Shown here: in pieces, positions 418 through 64,000 of the stretch
Numbering within the stretch: position 1 is the stretch's first letter
How the letters are laid out: each line of letters starts with the position of its first letter
Source: a virus
Taxonomy: Duplodnaviria > Caudoviricetes
DNA length: 64,000 nucleotides
Virus record (IMG/VR): IMGVR_UViG_3300033120_000868
Location: 79,494-143,493 of that record
Strand: one strand, 5' to 3'
Program-made: the position numbers and the translations under genes
Notes under the pieces: generated by a model
What the model was told of the DNA's origin: nothing
Seen by the model: only the letters and a program-made list of their open reading frames with translations
Database searches by the model: none

Positions 418-3400
418 ATGAACTGTAGAATAATTTACAAAGATAGTAAAATAGACCACGTACAAGCTGAAAATGGAGAAAGAAGTATTCTTTTTGATTC
501 TCTTAAAGATATTTTTGGCGCGGAAAAAGCTTTAGAATTGTATGCTTTAACTGAAGAAGACGGCTACAAACAAAAAATACAAGAAAAAGTAAGAAGTTTT
601 GTAGGAGTTACAGAAAAACAAATAGATAAACTATCTGAAGCAATTGATGCACAAGAAACATTAAATAAACTTGTAGAAACAGGTTTAGCTGATAACGTAT
701 ATCAAATGACTTCTGAAGAGATAGAAGCTAAGTTAGTTGAACTTGGAGTGGAAGCTGATGTGGCTAAACAGGTAGCTCAGTCAGGAGGATATTATTCTAA
801 CGCTAATACTGCATTTGCAAATTTAAAAGACAAAAATGTTAAAAATGTACAAGGTTGGATGAAAGCCCTAACTGACGTACAAAAAAATGGCGGAATAAAA
901 AATGTAAATCAAGAACTTGAATGGATAGGTCTTGAAGATTATTTAAATAACTACGTAAAAGAAAACAACCCAAAAGCAGGTAACATCCCTTCTTCTGTGG
1001 TTGAAGATTATATTAAGTCAAATCAGATTGAGATTGTTGATGTTACTAAGGGAAACAATATTGTACAACAAGAGATTGAAGATAACAGTAAAAGATTAGA
1101 TTTCATCATTAACGAGTTAGATAATAAATATCTTTTTGATGAAAGCGGTAATAGAGTTCACTATATTAAAGATGAGAATCTACCAAAAGAAGCTGTAGCT
1201 TTAATAATTGAGAGAGAAGAACTTAAAAAAAGAAACAGAGAACTTTTAAAATTAAATCAGAAAGACACAAAATACTCAGGATACCAACTAAAAGGAGCAG
1301 AAAACTACAGAGAGGTATTGTTAACAGTTCCAAAAATAGGGCAAGAAAAAAACAGACAAAACCAAATAGATTTTGTAGATTCATTAAAGAAAAAATATAA
1401 TGTTAATACTGTTATAGATTTAGATAAAGTTGTAAATGATGAGGAAAGAACTAAATGGGAAGAATTAACGACCAAAGCAAATATATCTCCTGAAAAGGAT
1501 AATAAATATTTTAGTAGTCATTGGGAGGAAGCTAATATTTTAGCTCACGTAAGGTTAAATGAAAAAACTTTACCTGATGGACGTAAAGTGTTGATTGTTA
1601 ATGAAATTCAATCAGATTGGGCACAACAGGGGAGAAAGGAAGGATTTAAAAGAACAAAACAAGCTCAAAATGAACTTATAGCAGAGCATAGAAAAGTATT
1701 ACAAGATTTAGAAGAATTAGACGTACAAATAATCGATGCAGTAGATAATAAAAAACCTAATATTTTAGAACTAGGAGAAAAGAAAGCGGAATTAATTAAA
1801 AAATCAGATGAATTAAGAAGTGATATTTTTAAACCTCGTGCTCCTCAAATGCCTTATAAAAACACAGACCAATGGACTGGAATTGTTGTAAGAAGAGTGA
1901 TGCAAATGGCTTCACAAGAAGGTTATGATGGAATTGCTTTTGCTACAGGTCAACAGTCTGCTGATATGTATAGTTTATCTAATCAAGTTGAAGTTCTGTA
2001 TTACAAAAAGAATGAAGATGGAACTTATGAAGTAGATGCTGATTTAAAAAATGGAGATAATAGAAACATTGGCGAATCTGTAACAGAAGATAAACTTGCA
2101 GACTATGTAGGTAAAGAGGTTGCAAACAAAATTATTGCAGGAGAAGGTACAAACTCCCCATCTCGAATGGATGAAGGTTATAAGTTTTTAAAAGGTTTAG
2201 AACTTGAAGTCGGAGGAGAAGGTATGAAAACTTTCTATGATAAGATTGTACCTAAAGTAGTTCAAAAAGAAGCTCAAAGATTTGATAAAAACGCTAAGTT
2301 AGAGACTGTCGATTTTAGTGATAATTTTACTTTTAGTAAGAAAGAGTTAGATGATTACACGAATTATTTACTAAACAAATATAATTTAGATAAGACAGGG
2401 AGGTATAGAATATTAATAGGGAAAAATGCAACAACAGAAGAAGTAGCTAAATATAAAAACTTATTAGAGAATTTTAGAAAAGATAATGATAGTAAGACAT
2501 CTCAAGGTGATAAACTATCTTTAGGAGTACAACCATACTTACCACTAACACAAGCTATAAAAGATTCAGTTAATCAAGGTATACCTCAATTCCAAAAATC
2601 AGGAATAACTCCAATTACAAACGGGTTTATTTATAAGAATGATGTATATTTAAATAAGAATGCAGATGAATCTACAATGGTACATGAGTTTAACCATTTA
2701 TACAACAATTGGTTAAAACAAAACCGTCCTGAAGTTTATAAGAAAGGTTTAGATTTAATTAAGGAGGAGTTAAAAAAGAAGAACAGTGAAATCCAAGACA
2801 TAATCAATTTTGTAAAAACTAATCAACCAAAATTAGAAGGAGATGCACTTTTAGAAGAGATTATTACCGAAATGGTCGGAAGGAAAGGGCTTGAATTATT
2901 AAATGAGCAAAAAGATAAAGTAAAAAGCTCAGGAATAATTGACTATTTAAAACAAGTTTGGCAAGAAATTAAAAATATGTTAGGATTATCATCTTACACA
3001 GATGAACAAATCCTAAACATGAATTTACAAGATTTTGCCAACGCTTCTGCTGTAGATTTATTGAGTGGAGAAAACATAGGAAGATTCTCAACAGATAGTA
3101 ATGACATTAGGTTTAGTCAAACTATACCAACATTTAAAGGAAATGCTGATATAGAGAGAATAAAAAAACTTAATAAAAAAGGAAACGAAGATGGAGCAAC
3201 ATTTAATTTAGATGGAAGTACTTATGATAAGGGAGGTTTAATTATACCTGTAATTAGTTTAAATACTACTCAAAAGGAGTTATCGAAAGAGCTTATAGAA
3301 AAGTTTATTCAGGAAAATTCAAGTAAGATTGGAGCTGATAATATTAAAGTAGGTATTTTTAAGTTTGAAGATTCTAATGAAGTATCTATAGATTTAAATG

Positions 3401-6144
3401 TAGTAGTAGATGCTAAGTATAGAGACATAGGTTTAACTTTTGGAAAGTATGCAGGACAAGAATCTTTATTTGATTTAAGTACTTTTTTACCTGCAAAAAC
3501 AGGTGCAGATGGTAAGAACCCTAAAAATTTCACAGATGAGGAGTTTAGGGATATTGCTAATAGCTTATCAGAAGGTAAGTTACCTAGCTTTTTAAATTTA
3601 TCTCCGCAAACTTCTACAAATTATGCAAATTTAACAGAAGATGGAGAAGGAAACTTTGTATTTTACCATGTAGGAGGTAAAGGATATGATGTAATAAAAA
3701 GAGGTACAGGACAAAACACAGCAACAAGCAGAGAAGAAGCAACAGCTATAAACAGAGTAGGTGGAGTAGCAATGTATTATCCTGCTGAAAATGTTCAAGA
3801 GTCTATGTTTTCAGGAGAAGCTAAGTATTTAGTAAAAGTTCCTCAAGAGAAAGTTTACGACTTTAATAGAGACACTTTAAATTTATTAGACGAAGCTGAG
3901 CAAATGTTTAGAAAGCAGTTTCCTAATCAAGCTTTTGATAAAAACTCTAAGTTAGCTTTTGTAACTAAAATCGCTAATGAAAAAGGATTTGATGCAGTTG
4001 TAGCTAATTGGGATAATACAACAAGAGTTCAAACAACTAAAGAGTTGAAACCTTTAGATGAGCAAATTACAGAAGGTAATAAAATTGTTAAAGATTTTTC
4101 CGCCGAAAATAAATTTAAATCAAATAAAGATAAAGGTTGGCAAGTTGTCCCAACAGTTATGCAAAGCAAGCTATTAAAAGACGTATATGATAAAATAGAT
4201 ACTTTAGTAGGAAACGACTTTTCAAATCCTTTGTATAGAGTTAGAGAAATGGCAGGGTATACTTTTGAAGACAGATTTGCACCATTTAAATCTCAAGATG
4301 AGATAACGGATGTAGTAGAAAAATCAGACCTTCCTCAAGAAGTGAAAGATGAGTACAATCAAGCAGTTAACTCCAAAGACAAGCTAGGATATTCAAAATT
4401 GACTAAAAAACCTTCTTTAAAGATAGACATAAGAGAAGTTAACGGAAGATTAGTTGTTGAAACTTTAGTAAATGAGACTAAAGCAGGTGCGTTGAGAATG
4501 TTGCCTTATGAAGATGGTTATAAAGTAGAGTCAGTTATAGTGTACGATAAGTATCAAAATAGACGTTTGGGGACACGATTGTATCAAGAAGCTATAAAGT
4601 TTCTATTGAAGAGTCAAACTCCTTTATACTCTCTTAAAGTACGTAGTGAAAATGCTAAAAAGATTTGGGACAAGTTTGTAGAAATAGGTGTGGCTCAAAA
4701 AGTAGGTGAAGATTATATTGCACCAAATAAAGGAGGATTGGATAAGAACAATGAGGCAAATCCTTCTGATGTAATGCAATATGCAAACACAACAGATGAA
4801 AAACTGTCAAAAGAAGAAACAGCAGAAGCTATCGACTTAACAGTTTCTTTAGGAGTTGAATCAAGCCAAGAAGCTGTAGCTATTTTAAAGGATACGTTCT
4901 TAGAAAACAACTCTTTTGTGTTTGATAAAAAGAAAATGAAAAAATCAGGGTTTAATGATTATGAAATTACAAAGATATTAGTTGATGTAAATTTACAGAA
5001 TCAAATTAAGAACAACTTGGCAAAATTAGAGAACATGGATTTTTCTGTACCTCTAATGGACGTTCAAACAACACCTGAAATTGGAATTTTTGGAAAACAA
5101 AAAGTAAAACCGAAAGTTAAAACTGTAAATGTAAAAACAGTAAACGAACAAGGAGAAGTAATAGATAAAGTTTCAGATACAAAAGAGTTATTAAGAAAAA
5201 CTTATCCTGATACTTTACCAACAGAAATTCCACAAATAATAAGTAGTCTTTTAAAAGCTTCTGAAAGTGTAGTTAATAAGTATAATGATTTATTTTATAA
5301 TACTTTAGATGATTTAAAAGATGTTGCTTTAGATTTAGGTGTAGATTTAAAAGATATTGAGAATAGAGTGTTTCCTTTAGAAAACTTTAAATCTTTTGTA
5401 AACTCTTTAATGAATTATTATACAAATCCAAGTGATGCTTTTGCTGAAGTTTATGATGAGTTTTTTGAGAATTATGGCGTGGAAAAAGCTACTAAACCAA
5501 CAATATCAACTCCATATACAGAATATGAGTTATTTGATAAATTCAATTTAGTAAGAAACGGAGACGAATATGTTAAAGTTGAAGATGTAGAAATCGAACC
5601 GTCTGCTGAAAGACAAGCTAAAATTCCACAATTAGAAGTAGAAGATTTTGCTGTTGATTTTGATAAATTAGAGAAATTAGTTTATCATAAAGAGCAGTTA
5701 GGAGTTGAAATGAAAACTTTACAGAAGCCTTTAGTTGAAGAGATTAATCTTAGAGAAGTTAAGAAAAATCCTTACTTAAAAGCAACTTCTGAAGGTGTAA
5801 AATTAGTAAGCGAAGACCCTCTAACAGCTCAAAAAGCAGAGTTATATGGGTACGAGCCAAAAGTGGCGGAAAAACAACCTAAAAAGATAGAAACAGATTA
5901 TTCTTTAATCCAAGATGTATTAGTAACACAACTAACTTCCGAAAATAAAGTAAGAACACCAAAAGGTAACTTTACTAAATTTATGGACGACAATAATAAA
6001 TCAGTGTTTTTATTAGACGGTTCAAAACAAAGTACAGTAGATTTAGAAGGATATTTATCTAAAGCGGACAACACACCAAAAATCGAGGCTAAAAAATTAT
6101 ACTCAAAAGAAGAATATGAAAATAATTTTGGATGTTTAAATTAA
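418..6144 (+). CDS. Giant polyvalent phage protein, probably virion-associated/ejected
   Basis: 1908 aa; block SSHW..NILAHVR..VNEIQSDW..GYDGIAF..FYDKIVP typical of phage large polyvalent proteins; HEFNH zincin motif; GNAT-like segment (VIVYDKYQNRRLGTRLY). Confidence 0.75.
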   Translation: MNCRIIYKDSKIDHVQAENGERSILFDSLKDIFGAEKALELYALTEEDGYKQKIQEKVRSFVGVTEKQIDKLSEAIDAQETLNKLVETGLADNVYQMTSEEIEAKLVELGVEADVAKQVAQSGGYYSNANTAFANLKDKNVKNVQGWMKALTDVQKNGGIKNVNQELEWIGLEDYLNNYVKENNPKAGNIPSSVVEDYIKSNQIEIVDVTKGNNIVQQEIEDNSKRLDFIINELDNKYLFDESGNRVHYIKDENLPKEAVALIIEREELKKRNRELLKLNQKDTKYSGYQLKGAENYREVLLTVPKIGQEKNRQNQIDFVDSLKKKYNVNTVIDLDKVVNDEERTKWEELTTKANISPEKDNKYFSSHWEEANILAHVRLNEKTLPDGRKVLIVNEIQSDWAQQGRKEGFKRTKQAQNELIAEHRKVLQDLEELDVQIIDAVDNKKPNILELGEKKAELIKKSDELRSDIFKPRAPQMPYKNTDQWTGIVVRRVMQMASQEGYDGIAFATGQQSADMYSLSNQVEVLYYKKNEDGTYEVDADLKNGDNRNIGESVTEDKLADYVGKEVANKIIAGEGTNSPSRMDEGYKFLKGLELEVGGEGMKTFYDKIVPKVVQKEAQRFDKNAKLETVDFSDNFTFSKKELDDYTNYLLNKYNLDKTGRYRILIGKNATTEEVAKYKNLLENFRKDNDSKTSQGDKLSLGVQPYLPLTQAIKDSVNQGIPQFQKSGITPITNGFIYKNDVYLNKNADESTMVHEFNHLYNNWLKQNRPEVYKKGLDLIKEELKKKNSEIQDIINFVKTNQPKLEGDALLEEIITEMVGRKGLELLNEQKDKVKSSGIIDYLKQVWQEIKNMLGLSSYTDEQILNMNLQDFANASAVDLLSGENIGRFSTDSNDIRFSQTIPTFKGNADIERIKKLNKKGNEDGATFNLDGSTYDKGGLIIPVISLNTTQKELSKELIEKFIQENSSKIGADNIKVGIFKFEDSNEVSIDLNVVVDAKYRDIGLTFGKYAGQESLFDLSTFLPAKTGADGKNPKNFTDEEFRDIANSLSEGKLPSFLNLSPQTSTNYANLTEDGEGNFVFYHVGGKGYDVIKRGTGQNTATSREEATAINRVGGVAMYYPAENVQESMFSGEAKYLVKVPQEKVYDFNRDTLNLLDEAEQMFRKQFPNQAFDKNSKLAFVTKIANEKGFDAVVANWDNTTRVQTTKELKPLDEQITEGNKIVKDFSAENKFKSNKDKGWQVVPTVMQSKLLKDVYDKIDTLVGNDFSNPLYRVREMAGYTFEDRFAPFKSQDEITDVVEKSDLPQEVKDEYNQAVNSKDKLGYSKLTKKPSLKIDIREVNGRLVVETLVNETKAGALRMLPYEDGYKVESVIVYDKYQNRRLGTRLYQEAIKFLLKSQTPLYSLKVRSENAKKIWDKFVEIGVAQKVGEDYIAPNKGGLDKNNEANPSDVMQYANTTDEKLSKEETAEAIDLTVSLGVESSQEAVAILKDTFLENNSFVFDKKKMKKSGFNDYEITKILVDVNLQNQIKNNLAKLENMDFSVPLMDVQTTPEIGIFGKQKVKPKVKTVNVKTVNEQGEVIDKVSDTKELLRKTYPDTLPTEIPQIISSLLKASESVVNKYNDLFYNTLDDLKDVALDLGVDLKDIENRVFPLENFKSFVNSLMNYYTNPSDAFAEVYDEFFENYGVEKATKPTISTPYTEYELFDKFNLVRNGDEYVKVEDVEIEPSAERQAKIPQLEVEDFAVDFDKLEKLVYHKEQLGVEMKTLQKPLVEEINLREVKKNPYLKATSEGVKLVSEDPLTAQKAELYGYEPKVAEKQPKKIETDYSLIQDVLVTQLTSENKVRTPKGNFTKFMDDNNKSVFLLDGSKQSTVDLEGYLSKADNTPKIEAKKLYSKEEYENNFGCLN

Positions 6145-54328: not shown

Positions 54329-54589
54329 TTAAAAAACCTCATCTAACTTTATCTGCTCATACCACTGTAAGTTAGAAACATCAACAACTCTCTTCTGCAT
54401 TACAATTAAATCTTTTAATCTTGACAAAGAATACCATTTTCTATTTATCCAATATCCTAAACAATTATTATTATCTTTTAATTCAACTGACTTAGGTATG
54501 TTCGTTATATCAAACAATTGTTTTTTGCGAAAAGAAAAAGTTTTTCTTTCAATAATAAAATAGTTTGAATAAGTTATAATATATTTCAT
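54329..54589 (-). CDS. small hypothetical protein flanking the cassette array (intI position, but not an integrase)
   Basis: 86 aa, GYWINRKWYSL; no tyrosine-recombinase motifs. Confidence 0.65.
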   Translation of the reverse strand: MKYIITYSNYFIIERKTFSFRKKQLFDITNIPKSVELKDNNNCLGYWINRKWYSLSRLKDLIVMQKRVVDVSNLQWYEQIKLDEVF

Positions 54590-54619
54590 TTGTCAAGGTT
54601 TCTTATTAGTGTTTATAAA

Positions 54620-54658
54620 GGTTAGTATAGGTGAGTTTCGCTTAGCCAATAGTTGTAA
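54620..54658 (+). other. putative attI-like primary recombination site
   Basis: GTTGTAA at 54652 matches the TTACAAC end of cassette 1 but has no upstream hairpin arm. Confidence 0.55.
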
Positions 54659-54678
54659 AACAGTTTAGAAAATACTTT

Positions 54679-55209
54679 ATGAAAATAAAAGAATCAGATA
54701 TAGAAGTTATAGATTTCATATTAAACTTAAGCCTATCTAAAGAAGTTTCTTTACAAGATTTACTTGAAAATAATATAATTGATTCACAACAAGGCGAGTT
54801 TCCTGAAATAAACTTATGGTACAATCCGAAAGATGAATTTGCTAGATATTTAAAAATACTTGAAAAATACAATTTATGTAACATAGTACGCTATATTGGT
54901 GCAGAAACTGCTATTAAAAATACAAACACTTCAATAACTCTCAACAGAGGTGGTTTTAAGCCAATATTTGAAAAAATACAACTTGATGAAGAAAAAGAAC
55001 AAATTGAATTTGAAAAATCTAAAATAGATTTAAAACTTAATAAATGGCTCTTAAAGACTAAATGGCTTCCACACTTTATTACTTTCATTTCTTTACTATT
55101 CGCTGTTTACGTTTATTTCGATTCTAAAAACGATTCAAAAAAATTAGAAGAACGAATAGAAAAGTTAGAATCGAAAATACCAATCCCGAAAAATGAGTCC
55201 AAAAAATAA
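54679..55209 (+). CDS. cassette 1 gene: membrane protein, canonical cassette orientation
   Basis: 176 aa, one TM near C-terminus flanked by coiled coils; only credible + strand gene after 14.8 kb. Confidence 0.8.
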   Translation: MKIKESDIEVIDFILNLSLSKEVSLQDLLENNIIDSQQGEFPEINLWYNPKDEFARYLKILEKYNLCNIVRYIGAETAIKNTNTSITLNRGGFKPIFEKIQLDEEKEQIEFEKSKIDLKLNKWLLKTKWLPHFITFISLLFAVYVYFDSKNDSKKLEERIEKLESKIPIPKNESKK

Positions 55210-55264
55210 CCTTTGTTTCTTTGGGACAATCTTTAGACAATGCATACTTAATAATCTTAATCAT
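55124..55264 (-). CDS. small antisense membrane peptide in cassette 1 (46 aa, not in track)
   Basis: MIKIIKYALSKDCPKETKVIFWTHFSGLVFSILTFLFVLLIFLNRF. Confidence 0.4.
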   Translation of the reverse strand: MIKIIKYALSKDCPKETKVIFWTHFSGLVFSILTFLFVLLIFLNRF

Positions 55265-55330
55265 AATAAAATAATTTTAATACTTGACACTTAACAAAGG
55301 CGGACAAGTTAAACCTTAATAAAACCGATT

Positions 55331-55466
55331 TTACAACAGCGGTTTGTTTCAAGTGGCGGTTTAGTGATAATCCGAAAACGCCGTTGTAAAATTTAATAAT
55401 TAGTTTATATTTGTAATGGCTTGGTGCTGAAATCGCCACCTGAAAACAAGCCACAGAACGTTATAT
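55331..55466 (+). repeat. attC-like site 1
   Basis: TTACAAC..GGTTTGTTTCAAGTGGCG / CGCCACCTGAAAACAAGCC..GTTATAT. Confidence 0.85.
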
Positions 55467-55472
55467 GATAGC

Positions 55473-55718
55473 TTACTCAACTTTGTGGCTAAAAAGTTCA
55501 TTGTAATATTTTTCAGCTCTTTCTTCTTGTGTTATGTTATATCCGTAAAGTTCCCAATCAGCACCATCGTTGAAAGAAGTTTTTATTTGCTCTTTTTCTT
55601 TATTAATTTTATCTTCTACCATATCAATAATTAAATTAACAGTGGTTTTAATAAAAGGATTTTCGACTATTTTAGAAACTTCTTCTAATTCATTAAGTAA
55701 TTCTTGCATTGCTGTCAT
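55473..55718 (-). CDS. cassette 2 gene, phage-type small protein
   Basis: MTAMQEL..KEKEQI...F.DG..AEKYYNE. Confidence 0.75.
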   Translation of the reverse strand: MTAMQELLNELEEVSKIVENPFIKTTVNLIIDMVEDKINKEKEQIKTSFNDGADWELYGYNITQEERAEKYYNELFSHKVE

Positions 55719-55741
55719 AATAATTATGTTTAAAAGCCATC

Positions 55742-55874
55742 ATATAACAATGCATTGTAGCAATTGTGGTTTAAGGCTTAATTAATAATTTGTTTTTACT
55801 TGGTTAGTTTTAGTCTTAATTTGAAGCATTGTGCAAGTCTAACCACAACTGACTACAATGCTTTAACGTTATGT
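55742..55874 (+). repeat. attC-like site 2
   Basis: ATATAAC..GCATTGTAGCAATTGTGGTT / AACCACAACTGACTACAATGC..GTTATGT. Confidence 0.88.
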
Positions 55875-56180
55875 GATATTTTCCAAAACGACTAAATCAG
55901 AAATATCATCTAAATAATAAACAGTTTGTTCTCCGTCATACCATTGCGGTTCTATAGGTACATTTAGACTAATTGATAATTTGTATTCTTCTGTATTATT
56001 ATATTTTGTTTGTGGTGGGTATATAAAACTTATAATTCCAGTAAACCATTCGTTTCTTTCTTTTTCTTTGAATGCCACAACAGTATTTTCTTTACAGTTA
56101 ATCAAAACATCACATAACAGTGGTTTTGACTTATTGCCGTTTTCGGCTTCATTTAATGTTGGTTTTGTACTTTCTGACAT
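55869..56180 (-). CDS. cassette 3 gene (starts inside attC3)
   Basis: probable start MSESTK in attC loop; stop = TTA of R box. Confidence 0.7.
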   Translation of the reverse strand: MSESTKPTLNEAENGNKSKPLLCDVLINCKENTVVAFKEKERNEWFTGIISFIYPPQTKYNNTEEYKLSISLNVPIEPQWYDGEQTVYYLDDISDLVVLENIT

Positions 56181-56246
56181 TGTTTTTAATTTAAAGTTGG
56201 TCTTGTATTTAATCGGCAACAAGACAAAGCCACAGGAGCGTTATGC
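56112..56246 (+). repeat. attC-like site 3
   Basis: ACATAAC..TGGTTTTGACTTATTGCCG / CGGCAACAAGACAAAGCCA..GTTATGC. Confidence 0.88.
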
Positions 56247-56252
56247 ACAATA

Positions 56253-56717
56253 TTATAGAATACCATACAAATCATAATGATTTTCCAAAAACCAATTATA
56301 GTGTTCTGCAATCATATTTTTATTATATCCTAAAAAAGTAGTGATTTGTGCATGACCTCCTGTATCTCTGTTTGGTATATTTATGGTCAATGAACCATTT
56401 TTACCCTTTTTCCAAGTTATTTTATGAAAATATAAATCTTCTCTTTTTCCTAAAATATATCTTGAAAACTTACTTAATTGTTGTTGAACTAGAAAATCAT
56501 TAATATTTTTTAACTCAGGTATATACCCTAAATCTATAATATTTTTAGCTGAATCTCCGTTTTCAAAGATAAATCTTCCATTATATCCAATAAGTTTCAA
56601 TCTACCATATTGACAATTAAAATAAATCCCGTAAGGAAGATATTTAAGTAAAATACTGTGCATAACAGCGGTTTTGTCGCATTGTGGTACTTGGGTATTT
56701 TTTGAAAGTTCAGTCAT
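56253..56717 (-). CDS. cassette 4 gene (starts inside attC4)
   Basis: 154 aa; YLPYG..., WFLENHYDLYG. Confidence 0.75.
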   Translation of the reverse strand: MTELSKNTQVPQCDKTAVMHSILLKYLPYGIYFNCQYGRLKLIGYNGRFIFENGDSAKNIIDLGYIPELKNINDFLVQQQLSKFSRYILGKREDLYFHKITWKKGKNGSLTINIPNRDTGGHAQITTFLGYNKNMIAEHYNWFLENHYDLYGIL

Positions 56718-56795
56718 AATTTTAAAATTTAGTTATTATTTGTTAAGTTTGGTCTTAAATCGCCACAACGACGACAAAGCCACAGGGCGTTATCA
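56660..56795 (+). repeat. attC-like site 4
   Basis: GCATAAC..GGTTTTGTCGCATTGTGG / CCACAACGACGACAAAGCC..GTTATCA. Confidence 0.88.
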
Positions 56796-56981
56796 CTCAG
56801 CTTGTAGAACACCTAAATCATCGATGTTTAGTATTGTAAATCTATCTTGCTTTTCAAATAATTGTTCTCCAACTTCTTGTGCAATTTCTTTTTCTGAAAA
56901 GCGTAAAGTTTTTCTATTAGCACCATATAACGCTTTTTTAGTGTCTAAATCAATAATAATCCATTTTCTTTCTTTTTTCAT
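56793..56981 (-). CDS. cassette 5 gene
   Basis: 62 aa filling the cassette. Confidence 0.7.
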   Translation of the reverse strand: MKKERKWIIIDLDTKKALYGANRKTLRFSEKEIAQEVGEQLFEKQDRFTILNIDDLGVLQAE

Positions 56982-57006
56982 CTTGTTTGTATTTAAAAAG
57001 CCGAAG

Positions 57007-57138
57007 TGATAACATACGCTAACCGCTATTCAGGCTTTAGGTTAAATTTAAAGTGTGTTTTGTGTCTGTAAGATTTGTAATAATCCGAAATTTCAGTCCT
57101 TACTTTTCCTGAACATCGGTTAGCGTCCGCCGTTATGT
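57007..57138 (+). repeat. attC-like site 5
   Basis: TGATAAC..ACGCTAACCGCTATTCAGG / CCTGAACATCGGTTAGCGT..GTTATGT. Confidence 0.88.
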
Positions 57139-57139
57139 A

Positions 57140-57355
57140 TCATTTTTTAAATTGACATTTTTCGTATATTTTTGCAAGTGGTGTTATAAAATCTTTACCA
57201 GTAAATAAATATGGTATAGTTATTACAGCAGTATACGGTATATTTACAAGCAAAAATATTAACCACAGCATCATTTCATAAAAACGATACATAACAACAG
57301 ATATACTCAATTTTGAGTTCTGTGTTTCATTCAAGTTTTCTTCTTTTTCAATCAT
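57140..57355 (-). CDS. cassette 6 gene, small membrane protein (starts inside attC6)
   Basis: hydrophobic core. Confidence 0.65.
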   Translation of the reverse strand: MIEKEENLNETQNSKLSISVVMYRFYEMMLWLIFLLVNIPYTAVITIPYLFTGKDFITPLAKIYEKCQFKK

Positions 57356-57418
57356 TTTATTTATTATTTAAATTATTACTATTTAATTCAAAACTAAGTA
57401 TATCTGCAATCGTTAACC
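57289..57418 (+). repeat. attC-like site 6
   Basis: ACATAAC..CAGATATACTCAATTTTGAGTT / AATTCAAAACTAAGTATATCTG..GTTAACC. Confidence 0.85.
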
Positions 57419-57658
57419 ACAATTGCATATCAGAAGTTTAATAGACGCTATTGTATTTGATTCTGGCTTTTCAAATTCAGTTACAAATTCCAATCCTTTT
57501 TTATCTAATTCATCAAACAAAAAGTTGTCAATATCTTGGTAAGAATTAAACCATTTCATCCCGTTTCTATTGCTTTTTTCAAGTTCGGATAAAGCAACTG
57601 TGGTTAACACAGGTTTTGTGCTATTGCTTGGCTTGTTGTTTTCTGAATGTTTATTCAT
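57413..57658 (-). CDS. cassette 7 gene (starts inside attC7)
   Basis: stop = TTA of R box. Confidence 0.7.
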   Translation of the reverse strand: MNKHSENNKPSNSTKPVLTTVALSELEKSNRNGMKWFNSYQDIDNFLFDELDKKGLEFVTEFEKPESNTIASIKLLICNCG

Positions 57659-57736
57659 AATCTGTAATTTTTAGTGTTTAATTTAATGTTTTAGTTTTCT
57701 TTTACGCAACAGACACAAAGCCTGAGGACGTTATAA
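57602..57736 (+). repeat. attC-like site 7
   Basis: GGTTAAC..CAGGTTTTGTGCTATTGC / GCAACAGACACAAAGCCTG..GTTATAA. Confidence 0.88.
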
Positions 57737-57746
57737 GAAATAGCTA

Positions 57747-57974
57747 CTAATCGTTTTCAAAATCAAATTCTTCTTCAATAATATCTAATAGACTTGTGGC
57801 TATATCTCCGTTATGTATTCTAAAAGCTATCTTTTTAGCTTCAGAAACTATATATTCAGCGTCATCTTCGCTTATAAGTTCAAAAACCGCTGGGTCTGTA
57901 ATGTCATTTGCAATTAAAATAGCTTGACACCATCTTTTCGCTATTCTTTTTAAAACTAATTTATCTTTTACCAT
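57747..57974 (-). CDS. cassette 8 gene
   Basis: probable start MVKDK (frame open back to 58058 inside attC8). Confidence 0.7.
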   Translation of the reverse strand: MVKDKLVLKRIAKRWCQAILIANDITDPAVFELISEDDAEYIVSEAKKIAFRIHNGDIATSLLDIIEEEFDFEND

Positions 57975-58003
57975 AACTTTTAATTTAAATTTACCGCTAC
58001 TTC

Positions 58004-58081
58004 TTATAACAGGTGTTTGTAAATACCAGCCGAATATACTATGCGTGTAGGCTGGCATCTACAAGCACCAAAACGTTAGCA
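58004..58081 (+). repeat. attC-like site 8 (short, 78 bp)
   Basis: TTATAAC..GGTGTTTGTAAATACCAGCC / GGCTGGCATCTACAAGCACC..GTTAGCA. Confidence 0.88.
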
Positions 58082-58091
58082 AACATTGTTA

Positions 58092-58421
58092 CTATTTCGT
58101 TAAAAAGAAATCATATCCAACAAACGGCAAAGAAGCTCTAAATTTAGTATCTTTTGGAACATTCCATTTTTTTATCAATCTAACAACTGATTTTAATGAA
58201 TAAGCATCGTTAAAACCATCGTGTGACATAGAATAATACACAGATGTATTTCCTGTTTTTTCCCATTCTCCTGTTTGGGTATTAAACCATAAATTATTTT
58301 CAACTGGTTCTATCCAAAATGGTCTTTTCATTCTTCTTTTAGAACCATCTTCATATTTAGAATGAATTGTAACGCTTTTAAAAATCCTTTGCCCTTTAGG
58401 TTTACTTGAAATAATTTTCAT
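58092..58421 (-). CDS. cassette 9 gene
   Basis: probable start MKIISS. Confidence 0.7.
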   Translation of the reverse strand: MKIISSKPKGQRIFKSVTIHSKYEDGSKRRMKRPFWIEPVENNLWFNTQTGEWEKTGNTSVYYSMSHDGFNDAYSLKSVVRLIKKWNVPKDTKFRASLPFVGYDFFLTK

Positions 58422-58453
58422 AATATTTTTTATTTTAAATACCCACAACGATT

Positions 58454-58588
58454 TGCTAACAGCATATTTATTCAATTGTGGCTTTTGGGTTAATTAAATG
58501 TTTATTGTGTGTTTGTAATGTTAATTTTTAAATTGATAGTTCGTTTTGTGCTTATCCACAACTGAAATAAATACCCAAAACGTTAGTG
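58454..58588 (+). repeat. attC-like site 9
   Basis: TGCTAAC..TATTTATTCAATTGTGG / CCACAACTGAAATAAATA..GTTAGTG. Confidence 0.85.
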
Positions 58589-58927
58589 ACAATTGCAGAC
58601 AAGACGTTCAATAAGATAATCACTATCTTTTTTAACAATAGGAATTATCAAATTTTTAATCTGTTTTTTTTGTTTTTTATTCATTTTAGGATTTACTGGT
58701 TGTATTATTTCCCCCGTATTAATCATAATTAATATTCCTTTGTCCTTATGTTGTACAGAAGAATCTAATGATTTCCCATTGAACCATTTTGCAGAAAAAC
58801 ATTCAGGATTTGATTTTAAAATTTCAATTACCTTTTCTATAAATACTTGTTCGTGAGCATCCAAAGGAGAACAACTGTCACTAACAGCGTGTATAAAAAA
58901 TGGCTTTTTTAGGCTTAATTTAAACAT
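58583..58927 (-). CDS. cassette 10 gene (starts inside attC10)
   Basis: stop = TTA of R box. Confidence 0.7.
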   Translation of the reverse strand: MFKLSLKKPFFIHAVSDSCSPLDAHEQVFIEKVIEILKSNPECFSAKWFNGKSLDSSVQHKDKGILIMINTGEIIQPVNPKMNKKQKKQIKNLIIPIVKKDSDYLIERLVCNCH

Positions 58928-59010
58928 AATTTTGTGTTTTTATAATTAGTAATAATTCAATAATTTAGGCGTACTTGCACGCCACTTCTTATACACGCAA
59001 AACGTTATAG
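58879..59010 (+). repeat. attC-like site 10
   Basis: CACTAAC..GCGTGTATAAAAAATGGC / GCCACTTCTTATACACGC..GTTATAG. Confidence 0.88.
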
Positions 59011-59030
59011 TTAATGGCTACAAATTGTTT

Positions 59031-59429
59031 TTACATACCTATATTTTCAATTCCAAGTAACTCAATAAGTATATGTATCTCTTTACTACCCCATTCGTTT
59101 TCTATATTAAATATAATTTCTTTGTCAGATAAAATTTCTTGCATATAATTATCCTTTACTTTTACACCCCACCAATTACCGTCTGATGCAAGAGTTAAAA
59201 TATCTGAATTATCACGAATTGTTTTAATCTTATCATAAAAAGACATTTGGTTAAATCTTTTAGCCATTTCTACGTATTGCTCTAAAGTGAATTTTCTTTT
59301 ATAATTATTGTTCGTGCTTTTAGCTCTCATATAATCATCATATTCTCTAGTACTCATACCTCTTGGGTCTTGTGTATCATAAAAATCACTTGCTTTAACA
59401 TCTCTGTAATCAATTCTTTTGTTTTTCAT
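59031..59429 (-). CDS. cassette 11 gene, paralog of backbone gene 14832-15095
   Basis: shared T.EQY....RFN.MSF..K..TI..N..I.....DG. Confidence 0.75.
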   Translation of the reverse strand: MKNKRIDYRDVKASDFYDTQDPRGMSTREYDDYMRAKSTNNNYKRKFTLEQYVEMAKRFNQMSFYDKIKTIRDNSDILTLASDGNWWGVKVKDNYMQEILSDKEIIFNIENEWGSKEIHILIELLGIENIGM

Positions 59430-59457
59430 AATTTCAGTTTTTAAAAACCGCCACTAA

Positions 59458-59590
59458 CTATAACAGTAGTTTGTAGCAATGGCTGGCTTGTTGTTTAATT
59501 TAATGTTTTTGGCTTATCGGTATTGTAGTTTTTAAACCAAAACTACTCGCTTACTTGCACGCCACTGCAACAAGCTACAAAACGTTAGGC
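59458..59590 (+). repeat. attC-like site 11
   Basis: CTATAAC..GTAGTTTGTAGCAATGGC / GCCACTGCAACAAGCTAC..GTTAGGC. Confidence 0.88.
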
Positions 59591-59821
59591 GATATGCCCT
59601 ACACCCTTACTGTCAGCAAATTGGTATCCGTGTCTTTGATTACTATATTTCTTTTCTCGTCCTTGCATACCATCTGTCCATACTTTACCACAACACTTGC
59701 AACGATAGGCACGTCTCCCATCAAATGCTCTACCTTTTTCAGGGTTAGTTGTTTGACAAGAAGCACATCGCCTAACATCGGCTTTGTTCAATACCTTATC
59801 TTCTGTATTATCGTTTTTCAT
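59585..59821 (-). CDS. cassette 12 gene, Zn-ribbon protein (starts inside attC12)
   Basis: CASC...YRCKCCG; stop = TTA of R box. Confidence 0.7.
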   Translation of the reverse strand: MKNDNTEDKVLNKADVRRCASCQTTNPEKGRAFDGRRAYRCKCCGKVWTDGMQGREKKYSNQRHGYQFADSKGVGHIA

Positions 59822-59892
59822 GTTATTTAAATTTTAAAAATTACGTTTAGTTTTCATAAGTCGGCACTAAACAAAGCCGAGAACCGTTAGCA
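59770..59892 (+). repeat. attC-like site 12
   Basis: GCCTAAC..TCGGCTTTGTTCAATACC / GGCACTAAACAAAGCCGA..GTTAGCA. Confidence 0.88.
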
Positions 59893-59896
59893 GTAA

Positions 59897-60139
59897 TTAA
59901 TCCTCGAACTTAACAAATTTGAATTTATACCCACCTTTCTTAATTCCAAACTTCTCACACCATCTTTCAAACCAATTTGATTTAATGATTATTATTTGCC
60001 ATTTTTCTGCATAATCTAACGCATTTTGTTCTGTAATTAATCCATCTTTTTCAAGGCGTTCTAAAACTAAGTCTTTTACTTGATTTGCGTTTAGTGTATA
60101 TTCTTCTAAAGAAATTAACATTCCATCCATTTGTGCCAT
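59897..60139 (-). CDS. cassette 13 gene
   Basis: 80 aa filling the cassette. Confidence 0.7.
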   Translation of the reverse strand: MAQMDGMLISLEEYTLNANQVKDLVLERLEKDGLITEQNALDYAEKWQIIIIKSNWFERWCEKFGIKKGGYKFKFVKFED

Positions 60140-60161
60140 AATATTTGTATTTTATAACTAC

Positions 60162-60293
60162 TGCTAACAACGGTTATACAATAGTTGGGTTAATTGTTTA
60201 ATTTAAAGTCTGTTTTGTGCTTTTAAAATCTGTGATAAATCAAAAGTTAAGGAGTACCAACCCCAACCATCGTATAGCCGTCGAACGTTATGT
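60162..60293 (+). repeat. attC-like site 13
   Basis: TGCTAAC..ACGGTTATACAATAGTTGGG / CCCAACCATCGTATAGCCGT..GTTATGT. Confidence 0.88.
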
Positions 60294-60299
60294 GCCATT

Positions 60300-60509
60300 T
60301 TAAGACACACTATCCTTCAACTTTTGCAGTTCGACAATTAAGTCATCTACTTGTTGAATTAAGTTCATTTTGGCTGACCAATCATTTGCTCCATATCCTG
60401 AAAATTCAGCGCGGAAATGACCCCAAGCGTGATTTTTAGAACTTAATTCGATTTCGGCTTCACAACTTTGAGCCTTTTGTTTACCATCGTTTCTTAATTT
60501 TATTTCCAT
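60300..60509 (-). CDS. cassette 14 gene
   Basis: 69 aa filling the cassette. Confidence 0.7.
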   Translation of the reverse strand: MEIKLRNDGKQKAQSCEAEIELSSKNHAWGHFRAEFSGYGANDWSAKMNLIQQVDDLIVELQKLKDSVS

Positions 60510-60538
60510 TTTATTGTTGATTTATTAATAAAAACGGC

Positions 60539-60634
60539 ACATAACAAGGGTTTTGCGTAATAGCCCTATCAAGTGTCGTGGTTAATTTTAAGTTTTTACT
60601 AAGGGCTACTACGCAAAGCCCCGATACGTTATCA
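60539..60634 (+). repeat. attC-like site 14
   Basis: ACATAAC..GGGTTTTGCGTAATAGCCCT / AGGGCTACTACGCAAAGCCC..GTTATCA. Confidence 0.88.
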
Positions 60635-60859
60635 CTCAGCTTTTGACGAACTAAATAAATAAGCTAATTTCTCTGGAATAAGCATTTTTACTTTCACACT
60701 TGTTCCATTCCAAAAACTTTCTTCTACGTCATACGACTGAATTATTCCGTTGTGGTTTTCTATTTTTTTTTCTAAATCACGTGCTTGAGATTTTGTTTTA
60801 CATACTGCTGAAAAAAGTAAATATTTAATTCCGTTTACTTCATAAATTAATTGTTCCAT
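60632..60859 (-). CDS. cassette 15 gene
   Basis: 75 aa filling the cassette. Confidence 0.7.
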   Translation of the reverse strand: MEQLIYEVNGIKYLLFSAVCKTKSQARDLEKKIENHNGIIQSYDVEESFWNGTSVKVKMLIPEKLAYLFSSSKAE

Positions 60860-60880
60860 TTTGTGTGAATTAAGCCGAAG

Positions 60881-61012
60881 TGATAACAGTGGTTACACAA
60901 TATTGCCACTTCTGGAGTTATTTAATGTTGTTTTTGTACTTGTTTTGTTGGTTGTTTAATCGAATATTTTCGCTTACTTTTGGCAACATCGTGTAGCCAC
61001 AAAACGTTATAA
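60881..61012 (+). repeat. attC-like site 15
   Basis: TGATAAC..GTGGTTACACAATATTGCCA / TGGCAACATCGTGTAGCCAC..GTTATAA. Confidence 0.88.
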
Positions 61013-61249
61013 CTCATTTTTAGAAAGAGCTATGTTTACAATTGATATTGCTTTTTTAATCTGAGATATACTTTTAAATTCAGGCGTTATGTCAATTAAT
61101 TCTTCATCAGTGAGTATTTCACATAAATAATCATATTCTTCATCATTTATTCTCCAAAGTTGTTTATACATATCATCAAACGCATCTGTAATACCGCCAC
61201 ATCCTTTGTAAACTATATCTGTTCTATTTTTCCTTTCAAATCGTGTCAT
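61007..61249 (-). CDS. cassette 16 gene
   Basis: stop = TTA of R box. Confidence 0.7.
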   Translation of the reverse strand: MTRFERKNRTDIVYKGCGGITDAFDDMYKQLWRINDEEYDYLCEILTDEELIDITPEFKSISQIKKAISIVNIALSKNEL

Positions 61250-61261
61250 AATTAAAACGAG

Positions 61262-61394
61262 TTATAACAGTGGTTTTGCTCAATGGCTGTTTTTGGCAAA
61301 ACTTATACACTGTTTTGTGTTTGTAAAATTTGTTTTTAATTCAATAATTTAGGCTTGCTTTTCAGCCACTAAGCAAAGCCACAGGACGTTAACA
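61262..61394 (+). repeat. attC-like site 16
   Basis: TTATAAC..GTGGTTTTGCTCAATGGCTG / CAGCCACTAAGCAAAGCCAC..GTTAACA. Confidence 0.88.
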
Positions 61395-61441
61395 GATATG
61401 GTATGAAGTAGATACCGCATACCATTCTGAAAACTACCTTT

Positions 61442-61810
61442 TTATTTTTTAAACAACCAATTTGATTTTTCTGTACTTTTAAATTCAGATAAATAATTTT
61501 GAAATTGTTCATAGCTACAATCTAATATTTCTTTAGCATCAATTGAATGAGAATAATCAATATTATCTAATGATTCCAAAGTGAACAACATATTGTCTTG
61601 CCATTTAACACCATCAATAGACAATAAAACTTCTGACCTAATTTGTCTTTGATAGACAATTTTATAACCTTCCCACCACTTTGAAAATCTATTTTCAAGT
61701 TCTTCTTGTTCTGAACATTCTAAATTTGAAGCATCGCTCGATGATTGCAAAAATAAATCTAACGGATTTAATTTTGCTTGAATTTCTGTTGTATTAATTG
61801 TTGTTTTCAT
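61442..61810 (-). CDS. cassette 17 gene C
   Basis: 122 aa. Confidence 0.65.
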   Translation of the reverse strand: MKTTINTTEIQAKLNPLDLFLQSSSDASNLECSEQEELENRFSKWWEGYKIVYQRQIRSEVLLSIDGVKWQDNMLFTLESLDNIDYSHSIDAKEILDCSYEQFQNYLSEFKSTEKSNWLFKK

Positions 61811-61841
61811 ATTTTTTTAGCACTTATCCTTGCAATTGGTT

Positions 61842-62156
61842 TTAATTATTTAAAAATTCAGATGCTTGTATTATTTCATATTCTTTTTCATATTCAGGGC
61901 TTGTTATTCTACCACAATTTACATAAGTAATATTGCCGTCTATACTTAATGAAAAAATACTTTGTTGTGTTGTAGAAAAAAAGGGGTCATAAAAAATAGG
62001 TCTAATATTTCCTATTTGTTCACGATACCAATCTCTATGCCAAGACATTCTTTTACACTTATCATTTGGGTTAATATCTTTTCTTCTTTCCCATTCTTCA
62101 AAAGAATTAAACTGAATTAATATTTTTTTATCTTCAAAATTTTCGAGTTTTTTCAT
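61842..62156 (-). CDS. cassette 17 gene B
   Basis: 104 aa. Confidence 0.65.
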   Translation of the reverse strand: MKKLENFEDKKILIQFNSFEEWERRKDINPNDKCKRMSWHRDWYREQIGNIRPIFYDPFFSTTQQSIFSLSIDGNITYVNCGRITSPEYEKEYEIIQASEFLNN

Positions 62157-62160
62157 AATA

Positions 62161-62436
62161 CTAATAAGTTAAGTTAGAAAAAGTTTTACCTTCGTTGTTT
62201 ACGATATAGTTTTGTTCATCTTTCCATAAAGGATAAGTTTCTTTTGCATCTTCTGAAATAACAAAAGCATAACAACCACCTACTTCAATTTTTTCTTGAC
62301 CTTCTAATTGAAAAAAGTCAACATACATTTTAAAAAAAGCTTCTTCGTTTTTTTCTTTTCTAATAACTGAATAGCTTTCTCCTAAGTTCTGATTGAACTC
62401 CATTTTTACACTTGTAATTTTTCTTAATGTGTACAT
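62161..62436 (-). CDS. cassette 17 gene A
   Basis: 91 aa; MYTLR.I...N..LG..Y...YIVN..GKTF. Confidence 0.7.
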   Translation of the reverse strand: MYTLRKITSVKMEFNQNLGESYSVIRKEKNEEAFFKMYVDFFQLEGQEKIEVGGCYAFVISEDAKETYPLWKDEQNYIVNNEGKTFSNLTY

Positions 62437-62508
62437 AAATTCATATATTTATTTATTGCCTACTCTATTAGCTTTTCGGCTTCCGCTATATTTTAAAATA
62501 ACCACATC

Positions 62509-62641
62509 TGTTAACACTGCATTGTAGCAATTGTGGGTTAAGGCTTAATTAATAATTTGTTTTTTACTTGTTTTGGTTAGTTTTAAATCGAAACATTGTG
62601 CTAGTATAACCACAACTGACTACAATGCTTTAACGTTAGGT
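62509..62641 (+). repeat. attC-like site 17 (body nearly identical to attC2)
   Basis: TGTTAAC..GCATTGTAGCAATTGTGG / CCACAACTGACTACAATGC..GTTAGGT. Confidence 0.88.
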
Positions 62642-62647
62642 GCAATG

Positions 62648-63136
62648 CTACGACCACACCGCATTTTGATACTTCTTTTCATATTTGACAAATTTGTGAA
62701 TGAATCCGTAATCGTGGCAGACAAATTTATTACCTATCCAACCAAAATTATCTGCCTTGACATCTGTAAAGAAATAAGGCACTTTTTTTGGGCGTTCTTT
62801 ATCTAACTGTTTAGTCCGTTCCATTATTAATACTTTACCGTTAGGACTGCACCAGTGAATCGGAGCAAACCATTCTTTTACCCAAGCAAGATTTCCTTTT
62901 AATCCTTGAATTTCATCCCAAAGTAAAAATTCAGCGATGTTGCAATCTGTACTGTTTGGTTCAACTTTTACAACCATTTTATTTGGGTTCATATTGAACT
63001 CGTAAACACTTCTGTAAGAACCACTACCCAATTTTTCACCACAAAGAGTAAGTATTAAATCTGTATTTACATCTTGTAATTTACTTAAAGTAGAAACTTC
63101 ATCTACATTATTTAATCTATTTGTTAATCTAATCAT
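62648..63136 (-). CDS. cassette 18 gene, minimal protein-kinase-like protein
   Basis: LGSGSYRSVY, VVK, E, LIME, DVKADNFG, HDYG. Confidence 0.75.
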   Translation of the reverse strand: MIRLTNRLNNVDEVSTLSKLQDVNTDLILTLCGEKLGSGSYRSVYEFNMNPNKMVVKVEPNSTDCNIAEFLLWDEIQGLKGNLAWVKEWFAPIHWCSPNGKVLIMERTKQLDKERPKKVPYFFTDVKADNFGWIGNKFVCHDYGFIHKFVKYEKKYQNAVWS

Positions 63137-63174
63137 TTTTTAAGGTTTAAAACCGTTTAACAAAAAAGCACTGC

Positions 63175-63307
63175 ACCTAACAAGGTATTGCCAAAAGTGG
63201 GGCTTTCGTGCTTTCTATTATCTTCTGTACTCATATTTAACATTTGTTCTTTTAATTAACTTTGGTGGTTTAATGCCCCACCTTCGGCAATACCCAAAAC
63301 GTTATAA
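63175..63307 (+). repeat. attC-like site 18
   Basis: ACCTAAC..GGTATTGCCAAAAGTGGGGC / GCCCCACCTTCGGCAATACC..GTTATAA. Confidence 0.88.
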
Positions 63308-63313
63308 GCCATT

Positions 63314-63514
63314 TTAACGACCACGTAACTCATTACGTTCTTTAACTTCTATTTCGTCTGTATAATCTTCAAACAATAGCTTGCCAATTTTATCCCAAGA
63401 AACAAAAGTTTCCTTTGATGGCATTCTATTTGGTTTCAATCTTGCAGGAATATTTGTTTTTAAAATTACTCCTTCTTCTTTAGCTGTATAGCCTGTAATA
63501 ATTACTTTTTGCAT
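63314..63514 (-). CDS. cassette 19 gene
   Basis: 66 aa filling the cassette. Confidence 0.7.
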   Translation of the reverse strand: MQKVIITGYTAKEEGVILKTNIPARLKPNRMPSKETFVSWDKIGKLLFEDYTDEIEVKERNELRGR

Positions 63515-63559
63515 TGTTTTTAAATTAAATTGTTAAGCCAAACACGAATAAAAAACGGC

Positions 63560-63655
63560 TTATAACAGTGGTTTGGCAAAATACCGCCACAAGCCTTTGT
63601 ACTAAATTTGAACATTGTGCAAGGCGGCACTTCGCCAAGCCACCAAACGTTAGCG
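63560..63655 (+). repeat. attC-like site 19
   Basis: TTATAAC..GTGGTTTGGCAAAATACCGCC / GGCGGCACTTCGCCAAGCCAC..GTTAGCG. Confidence 0.88.
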
Positions 63656-63856
63656 GTAATGCTTTGATAAATACTTTTCGACAATATCTATCATTTGTAA
63701 TTCGTCATTGTATATATCGTAAAATCCATCAACATCTTCTAAATGTGGTCTGCTGGTTAATTTTTTAACTATTTCTTTAGCGTGGTAATTAGCACTAACC
63801 ATAACACCAGTTTTGCAAGATTGCTTGTTTTGTGATTTTTTGGAAACTTTAGTCAT
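63650..63856 (-). CDS. cassette 20 gene (starts inside attC20)
   Basis: stop = TTA of R box. Confidence 0.65.
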   Translation of the reverse strand: MTKVSKKSQNKQSCKTGVMVSANYHAKEIVKKLTSRPHLEDVDGFYDIYNDELQMIDIVEKYLSKHYR

Positions 63857-63931
63857 AATTTTAAGTGTATTTTGTATTTGTTAATTTTAGGTTTTTAGTT
63901 CGCAACCTCGCAAAGCCAAAAATCGTTATAG
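63799..63931 (+). repeat. attC-like site 20
   Basis: CCATAAC..TTTTGCAAGATTGC / GCAACCTCGCAAAG..GTTATAG. Confidence 0.8.
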
Positions 63932-63937
63932 CAAATG

Positions 63938-64000
63938 CTAGAAATCAATATCCGTTACAATAAATGTTTCATTACAATCTTCGCAAGTAATTTCTATATC
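63938..64000 (-). CDS. cassette 21 gene, C-terminal fragment (Zn-ribbon-like)
   Basis: ...DIEITCEDCNETFIVTDIDF* runs off the window end. Confidence 0.55.
   Translation of the reverse strand, partial: DIEITCEDCNETFIVTDIDF

Follow-up and report, generated by a model that had tools for sequence, protein, structure and literature searches.

How did a single gene, read in the manner of a bacterial integron cassette, come to stand at the head of a phage array whose other genes are read the opposite way? The stretch of DNA analysed here, hereafter the window, is the final 64 kb of the 143,493-bp IMG/VR record IMGVR_UViG_3300033120_000868, which is 100% complete according to CheckV and whose DNA matches in GenBank are to Flavobacterium phages only. 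From 55334 to the window end runs an array of small genes on the minus strand with about 20 repeats between them (units 55334-63928). The original prediction interpreted the head of this array as an attI-like entry site followed by one normally oriented cassette, recently captured from an integron of the host. Integrons are treated as bacterial gene-capture devices; on phages, to our knowledge, reports of attC clusters concern no more than short and isolated cases.

The repeats that separate the array genes are mostly about 127 nt in length, three being shorter, and have the form TAAC-A-stem ... stem-NNNAC-GTTA. An HMM was built with 17 array repeats as input and the whole record was searched with it. 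This unit HMM recovers every array copy and places extra units near the record start (4-129, 423-546 and 696-822), a left-arm half site at record positions 1048-1087 and two opposite-strand units near 23-24 kb. The RNAalifold consensus is a single long hairpin, with compensatory changes at 14 of its 15 pairs. The flanks of each array gene are mutual inverted repeats with a regular mismatch near position 11, and the base preceding GTT is C in all 17 aligned attC units as well as in five bacterial attC contexts. An attC is an imperfect palindrome with R''(..AAC)/R'(GTT..) and L''/L' boxes, whose structure is better conserved than its sequence. In a textbook attC the central unpaired spacer is roughly symmetric and there are extrahelical bases; in these units the spacer is asymmetric, with 1 nt on the AAC side and 4-6 nt on the GTT side. 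A profile search for a tyrosine recombinase returned no match to PF00589 or TIGR02249 anywhere in the 143-kb record. The array is a CALIN, a cluster of at least two attC sites spaced within a few kb, and the record encodes no integron integrase. The last 300 nt of the record (window 63701-64000) recur exactly at record positions 595-894, and the array probably runs across the record ends, with the contig break falling inside a repeated cassette.

Cassette 1 extends over 808 nt of the plus strand, from 54653 to 55460, with a G|TT crossover at either end. The GTT of the left crossover (54652-54654, plus strand) opens the 9-mer GTTGTAAAA at 54652-54660, whose complement TTTTACAAC is found at 55329-55337. 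The original prediction had pointed to this match and to the lack of a hairpin in front of the first crossover; both are borne out, as the sequences are present at these coordinates and the stretch in front shows neither a fold nor an HMM match. Seven copies of GTTGTAAAA occur in the window where 2.5 are expected, and none of 100 shuffles reaches seven. The cassette ends are complementary over about 15 nt with one indel: the left terminal inverted repeat GTTGTAAAACAGTTT (54652-54666, plus strand) pairs with the right terminal inverted repeat, or extended R'' box, AAACCGATTTTACAAC (55322-55337, plus strand), and a T/C mismatch near position 11 is found here as in other cassettes of the array. 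Downstream lies the attC-like unit 1 (55334-55463, plus strand; 130 nt, CAAC-A-stem ... stem-AGAAC-GTTA), which fits the family hairpin and scores 62.5 bits (E 4e-18) against the unit HMM, as befits a full member of the family. The GTTA at 55460-55463 (plus strand) is the crossover at which cassette 1 ends and cassette 2 starts.

Unit 1 contains a second, internal copy of GTTGTAAAA (55383-55391, plus strand), which pairs perfectly with the TTTTACAAC at 55329-55337 and makes an alternative local hairpin of 63 nt; the minimum-energy fold of the unit is a pair of local hairpins, not the long hairpin of the family. Bacterial versions of cassette 1 have this internal copy too. A 63-nt attC at 55329-55391 was considered as the real site of the cassette and rejected, since the full 130 nt match the family model and BLAST identity reaches 55463. 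The cassette holds one ORF that reads toward its own attC, as in bacterial loci. Judged by this layout and by its boundaries, cassette 1 is an integron-type gene cassette, composed of one ORF and its own recombination site and exchanged at G|TT.

Where else is this cassette found? The first 20 nt from 54652, GTTGTAAAACAGTTTAGAAA, are identical in six metagenomic contigs (L008-L013), in which they open the same gene, and in all six the homology to the phage cassette starts exactly at G|TT. What stands to the left of GTTGTAAAACAGTTTAGAAA changes with each setting. In five contigs it is an attC right arm (...C|GTT), a different one each time; in the sixth it is a site next to a recombinase gene (...ATATAGTA|GTT), and in the phage it is the leader (...CCAATA|GTT). 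In the sixth contig, L010, 51 nt separate the cassette from a divergent gene for a 267-aa tyrosine recombinase. Toward the other end, window positions 54991-55463 are approximately 91% identical over 450-475 nt to L008, L009, L011, L012 and L013, and 85% identical to L010. The match halts at the GTT(A) of the unit, position 55463 of the window, wherever the contig extends so far, and past the GTT of the hairpin the sequence is different in the phage and in each of five metagenomic contigs. The first 340 nt or so of cassette 1 are not those of the common bacterial version, the nearest DNA being 72% identical and belonging to a Flavobacterium MAG. Cassette 1 is thus, by these alignments, a mosaic, whose ends and 3' 475 nt are the common bacterial version and whose N-terminal coding part is another variant.

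Relatives of cassette 1 are located in chromosomes of Flavobacteriales. The closest protein, 93% identical (a match at the protein level) and encoded on a 2.4-kb contig of run SRR22387989, adjoins a gene with a type IX secretion C-terminal sorting domain (Pfam Por_Secre_tail). Other homologues are located on a 130-kb contig of a Kaistella MAG and on a 35-kb contig with EPSP synthase and RecQ, and more distant relatives reside in chromosomes of Kaistella, Flavobacterium, Polaribacter, Lutibacter and Arcticimaribacter. For one variant, the contig collection lists 202 blocks. Cassette 1 is a member of a family that is widespread in Flavobacteriales arrays. Among 2.9 million viral contigs, no relative of the cassette 1 protein was detected. 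A homologue search had been proposed along with the original prediction, and it places the relatives of cassette 1 in bacterial arrays, once directly beside a recombinase gene, with none found in viral contigs. Viral relatives do exist for the proteins encoded by cassettes 2 and 4. With relatives of cassette 1 present in bacterial chromosomes and none found among the 2.9 million viral contigs, transfer from host to phage is the simplest reading, and we infer that direction. The occurrence of one cassette with exact boundaries both in host arrays and at the head of the phage array is direct sequence evidence of a single cassette pool on which both phage and host draw. The proposed capture from a host integron, and with it the idea of cassette exchange between phage and host, gains support from the shared cassette ends and from the 91% identical 3' half in bacterial arrays.

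The orientation of the cassette fits the same picture. In bacterial loci, units and genes are co-directional and the recombinase-proximal site is on the AAC-first side, whereas in phage loci the units are oriented against the genes. The ORF at 54679-55209 is the sole plus-strand ORF of at least 90 aa between approximately 14.8 and 64 kb that starts with ATG and is clear of longer minus-strand ORFs and repeat units, which agrees with the earlier description of cassette 1 as the only credible plus-strand gene in about 49 kb. Measured against the bacterial arrays, cassette 1 is the sole host-style cassette of the array, the other 19 being coded backwards relative to their own hairpins. The original prediction had the AAC end first, the GTT end last and cassette 1 as the 'normal' one, and bacterial arrays display the same polarity. 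Symmetric R boxes had raised the suspicion of a reversed polarity, with the minus-strand genes canonical and entry at the far end; this possibility was dropped given that the bacterial arrays are co-directional and have their attI on the AAC-first side.

The cassette 1 ORF (plus strand) specifies a protein of 176 aa with a variable N-terminal domain, a coiled coil, one transmembrane helix and a short C-terminal helix. A single-TM coiled-coil protein had been anticipated, and the analysis returns just that: one hydrophobic helix (residues 129-147, mean Kyte-Doolittle 1.68) between long helices predicted at 93-126 and 130-165 in an AlphaFold model. This low-confidence model, based on 39 sequences, has a mean pLDDT of 64 that falls to about 40 in parts of the N-terminal domain, and comprises three helices and two strands followed by the two long helices. 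Its neighbours in the ESM Atlas are hypothetical proteins of Bacteroidota, and proteins with a winged helix resemble it weakly (TM 0.33-0.41); PHROGs yielded no match and Pfam sub-threshold matches only. The databases hold 73 relatives, mostly of about 155 aa. Within the family, the C-terminal half with the coiled coil and transmembrane helix is nearly invariant, and the N-terminal domain, about 100 aa long, is exchanged from one variant to another. Upstream of the ORF, one weak match to a Bacteroidetes-type promoter is the only expression signal found. To judge by its domain architecture, the protein is probably anchored in the membrane and has an N-terminal domain, for sensing or binding, that can be exchanged. 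It may act in phage exclusion or defence, a guess that we draw from the architecture.

Which enzyme might have moved the cassette? As the record is without a recombinase, the catalyst would probably be an enzyme of the host, and a candidate platform is present in Flavobacterium. In Flavobacterium limicola, a gene for a 347-aa recombinase (L022:6610-7653) is followed by an attI-type site that has two direct repeats and ends in ...TATATACAAG|TTA; after this site comes the first cassette, with eight units of the same family in the 12 kb that follow. Of 101 sampled genomes of the F. limicola genus, 59 have a homologue of this recombinase (E <= 1e-50). The attI-type core recurs downstream of the homologues, and at most of the 12 sites that were compared its sequence is TATATAC[AT]AG|TT. 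In the Flavobacterium genomes inspected, the recombinase gene and the array have the same direction. The F. limicola enzyme aligns end to end with XerA and has 12 residues where VchIntIA (2a3v) has 54, the IntI-specific domain. Its score against TIGR02249 is 209.8 for a cut-off of 265, and against NF040815 (XerA / integron integrase) it is 221.5 for a cut-off of 220. As the host enzyme is without the IntI insertion, classical integron chemistry cannot simply be assumed. Standard integron finders probably miss this recombinase platform. In Bacteroidetes, IntegronFinder 2.0 turned up hardly any complete integrons (bioRxiv 10.1101/2022.02.28.482270).

The phage side of the junction is anchored by a conserved gene of 86 aa (54329-54589, minus strand), which has relatives of 54-74% identity in 12 IMG/VR viral contigs. 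Its product has no Pfam or PHROG match and no counterpart in GenBank phages, hemulen6-1 and P12002L included; a 105-aa gene further left recurs at one distant viral locus. Between the 86-aa gene and cassette 1 lies the attI-like leader (54590-54651, plus strand), which by fold, HMM and alignment tests is unfolded and not an attC, and which has an A before the crossover. The 12 viral contigs align with the window over 45-62 nt upstream of the 86-aa gene and diverge at an invariant AAC|T, that is AG|TT on the plus strand, so that 13 phage contigs show a conserved gene side and a variable cassette side at this junction. Variability at position 1 had been put forward as a check of the entry site, and it is what we observe: the first cassettes differ in all 12 relatives, the break falling at the same AG|TT. 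These first cassettes have inverted-repeat ends of their own, and nearly all their ORFs are on the phage's strand, opposite to cassette 1. Removal of cassette 1 at both crossovers would join the leader to TTATATGATAGC and cassette 2, which is the layout of the relatives.

How closely does the phage junction resemble the host attI? A matrix was derived from 12 host attI cores and scored on the 16 nt before each GTT site. In seven of the 12 relatives the junction ranks first among 178-916 GTT sites, and in ten it is within the top four. A phage core, GCGAGTATAAAGGAGTTA, matches a host core, GCGAGTATATACAAGTTA, at 15 of 18 positions, and the base before GTT is A in 12/12 host attI sites and 13/13 phage junctions. 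The core of the window phage itself, TTTCGCTTAGCCAATA, scores -4.3 bits against the host-attI matrix and ranks 215 of 5908 GTT sites, which is background level. With its own core drifted, the attI likeness of the window phage rests on the alignment with its relatives. The window site is, on present alignments, attI-like by its position, by its homology with the relatives and by the bacterial cassette joined to it at G|TT. The conserved leader doubles as the upstream region of the conserved 86-aa gene, and this could explain its conservation without a role in recombination. Conservation in 13 contigs together with use by many cassettes speaks for a dedicated site and not for a target hit now and then, and the window site may still be active today.

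Based on these observations, we consider it probable that cassette 1 is the first unit of an integron-type array without an integrase, and that it is a host-type cassette docked by a XerA-like recombinase of the host at a phage site that corresponds to attI. During infection, this host enzyme, which is related to integron integrases, would cut the cassette out of a host array as a circle in which ...CACAGAACG is joined to TTGTAAAACAG... The folded hairpin would then recombine with the phage site at G|TT, and the cassette would be placed ahead of the older phage cassettes. Those cassettes that are adapted to the phage would be the ones coded on its transcribed strand. The bacterial orientation of the gene at position 1 fits a capture that selection has yet to sort. 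New cassettes are preferentially taken by attI, and it is on this rule that the designation of cassette 1 as the newest acquisition rests; the capture would on that basis be recent.

An alternative that we regard as unlikely is that the junction is a fixed border of the array, either a fossil attI or a secondary GTT of the attG kind that an ancestor used once, and that first cassettes arrive by homologous recombination among phages or with host arrays, the crossovers falling in the conserved gene and in a hairpin unit. The drift of the window site away from the host attI core and the absence of a recombinase from the record are compatible with such a passive role, and hairpin bodies of about 90% identity in unrelated contexts make homologous exchange in the units plausible. 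A new joint that links the leader to a bacterial cassette exactly at G|TT is, however, beyond what homologous exchange can produce. Cassette 1 calls for one site-specific event or more, and the 12 different first cassettes for several others; a good attI-like core is, moreover, kept in the relatives. An attG is a secondary genomic site, where cassette insertion occurs at a bare GTT outside the integron. The name attG is in use for a class of sites (PMC12901181). The phage site differs from an attG in being conserved in 13 contigs and in having been used by many different cassettes.

It is very improbable that the leader is the worn right arm of an old unit, with cassette 1 internal to the array and its upstream neighbour lost. 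An AGCCA motif 7-11 nt before the GTT does recall the AAAGCCAC of many right arms, but the 139 nt from 54520 to 54658 fold no better than shuffles (z = -0.03 on the plus strand and -0.48 on the minus strand) and the whole-unit HMM, run at E up to 10, does not pick them up. The leader is equally without a match to the right-arm HMM, with which 2621 GTT[AG] sites were scored and which recovered known units among its top hits. It is A, not the invariant C, that precedes the GTT, and the stretch aligns with the conserved non-hairpin leader in the 12 other phage contigs; the search for a decayed attC upstream, by which the original prediction could have failed, was negative by both HMMs and by folding. 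That the repeats are regulatory intergenic elements (terminator plus promoter, PeSL-like, as in T4-type phages), and that the ends of cassette 1 match by chance, is the least credible account of all: although the units are intergenic and overlap start and stop codons, and although an AT-rich 9-mer with seven copies in the window is not very rare, the same unit family occurs in host arrays beside a tyrosine recombinase, the cassette boundaries are exact in seven contexts, covariation backs a hairpin over a sequence signal, and a site of the same form in Polaribacter phage P12002L recombined with attI1 under IntI1 (PMC9892861).

If cassette 1 was docked by a host recombinase, how general might the arrangement be? 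We would give equal weight to belief and doubt in the broader idea that Flavobacteriales phages keep orphan host docking sites and borrow a XerA-like host recombinase, devoid of the domain regarded as the hallmark of integron integrases, to sample the host cassette pool while they infect, phages and hosts having in common an undescribed class of integrons. Were this so, cassette 1 would represent a capture caught before its selective removal or its turning to the reading direction of the phage. A full-text search of the literature, whose limited scope makes it no proof of absence, found no description of an integron-like platform in Flavobacterium or of attI-like sites in phages.

The phage site has points in common with the attI of integrons. 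The canonical attI1 possesses L and R boxes and the direct repeats DR1 and DR2. Like an attI, the phage site is non-palindromic, lies at the head of the array, ends in GTT and is conserved while the first cassette varies, and in related phages its core resembles the attI beside the host recombinase gene. Unlike an attI, it does not lie beside an integrase gene, as there is none in the 143-kb record; the copy in the window has drifted; and the presumed enzyme is XerA-like, belongs to the host and is without the IntI insertion. Sedentary chromosomal integrons offer another comparison. The Flavobacterium loci resemble them in having a recombinase, an attI with repeats, many cassettes, family hairpins of about 127 nt and the G|TT crossover, and some sedentary integrons have their integrase co-directional with the cassettes, as the Flavobacterium platforms do. 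They differ in the 12 rather than 54 residues of the host recombinase, in its score below the TIGR02249 cut-off and in the asymmetric hairpin spacer.

Integrase-less attC clusters (CALINs) have been described in phages, including Polaribacter phage P12002L, by Qi et al. 2023 (PMC9892861). The array in the window is the same in kind, a row of attC-type sites on a phage without an integrase, and the sites of P12002L have the TAAC-A-stem...stem-NNNC-GTTA form seen here, with the genes on the opposite strand. Some of the published arrays have only 2-3 predicted sites (the minimum was 2), against about 20 units here. No attI-like head and no cassette in common with a host were described for the CALINs of virulent phages (PMC9892861), whereas both are found in this array.

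The significance of these findings is that a phage family appears to conserve a docking site while the docked gene changes. Cassette exchange between phage and host now becomes testable with defined substrates, namely the phage leader, unit 1 and the Flavobacterium recombinase. If the cassettes carry genes for defence or counter-defence, such a route would bear on the arms races between phages and hosts among Bacteroidota of freshwater and wastewater.

Several minor observations accompany the analysis. The 15-nt GAGTATAAAGGAGTT (window 4617-4635, minus strand) is located inside a 1908-aa ORF, is identical to the junction core of the relatives and is the fifth-best host-attI-like GTT site in the genome; the occurrence is probably due to chance, unexpected as it is at that length. 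The hairpin units have histories of their own. The body of unit 4 (56654-56799) is about 90% identical to a unit (L002:4587-4732) of vB_FspS_hemulen6-1, a Flavobacterium phage in culture. In that phage the unit has a DNA methyltransferase gene on one side and another gene on the other, both unrelated to the genes beside unit 4 in the window; the common stretch includes an identical ATG and 18-residue leader. Cassette 4 together with the unit to its right (56211-56784) recurs with 90% identity in IMGVR_UViG_3300027798_000005 (L056:2934-3507), in different surroundings. To judge from cassette 4, phage hairpins travel with the gene whose start codon they hold. In two bacterial contigs (L010:3622-3760 and L012:711-850), one cassette gene is combined with two hairpin bodies. 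These part ways beyond CAACAGCGGTTT, and changes in the opposite arm compensate for the difference. Since hairpin bodies can be swapped independently of genes, in L010 and L012 as in hemulen6-1, recombination beyond the exchange at G|TT also acts here. L012, a wastewater contig with the common form of cassette 1, bears a further cassette at 2352-3134 that encodes a LinB-like nucleotidyltransferase of the lincosamide-resistance type, and arrays such as this one may hold resistance-type genes.
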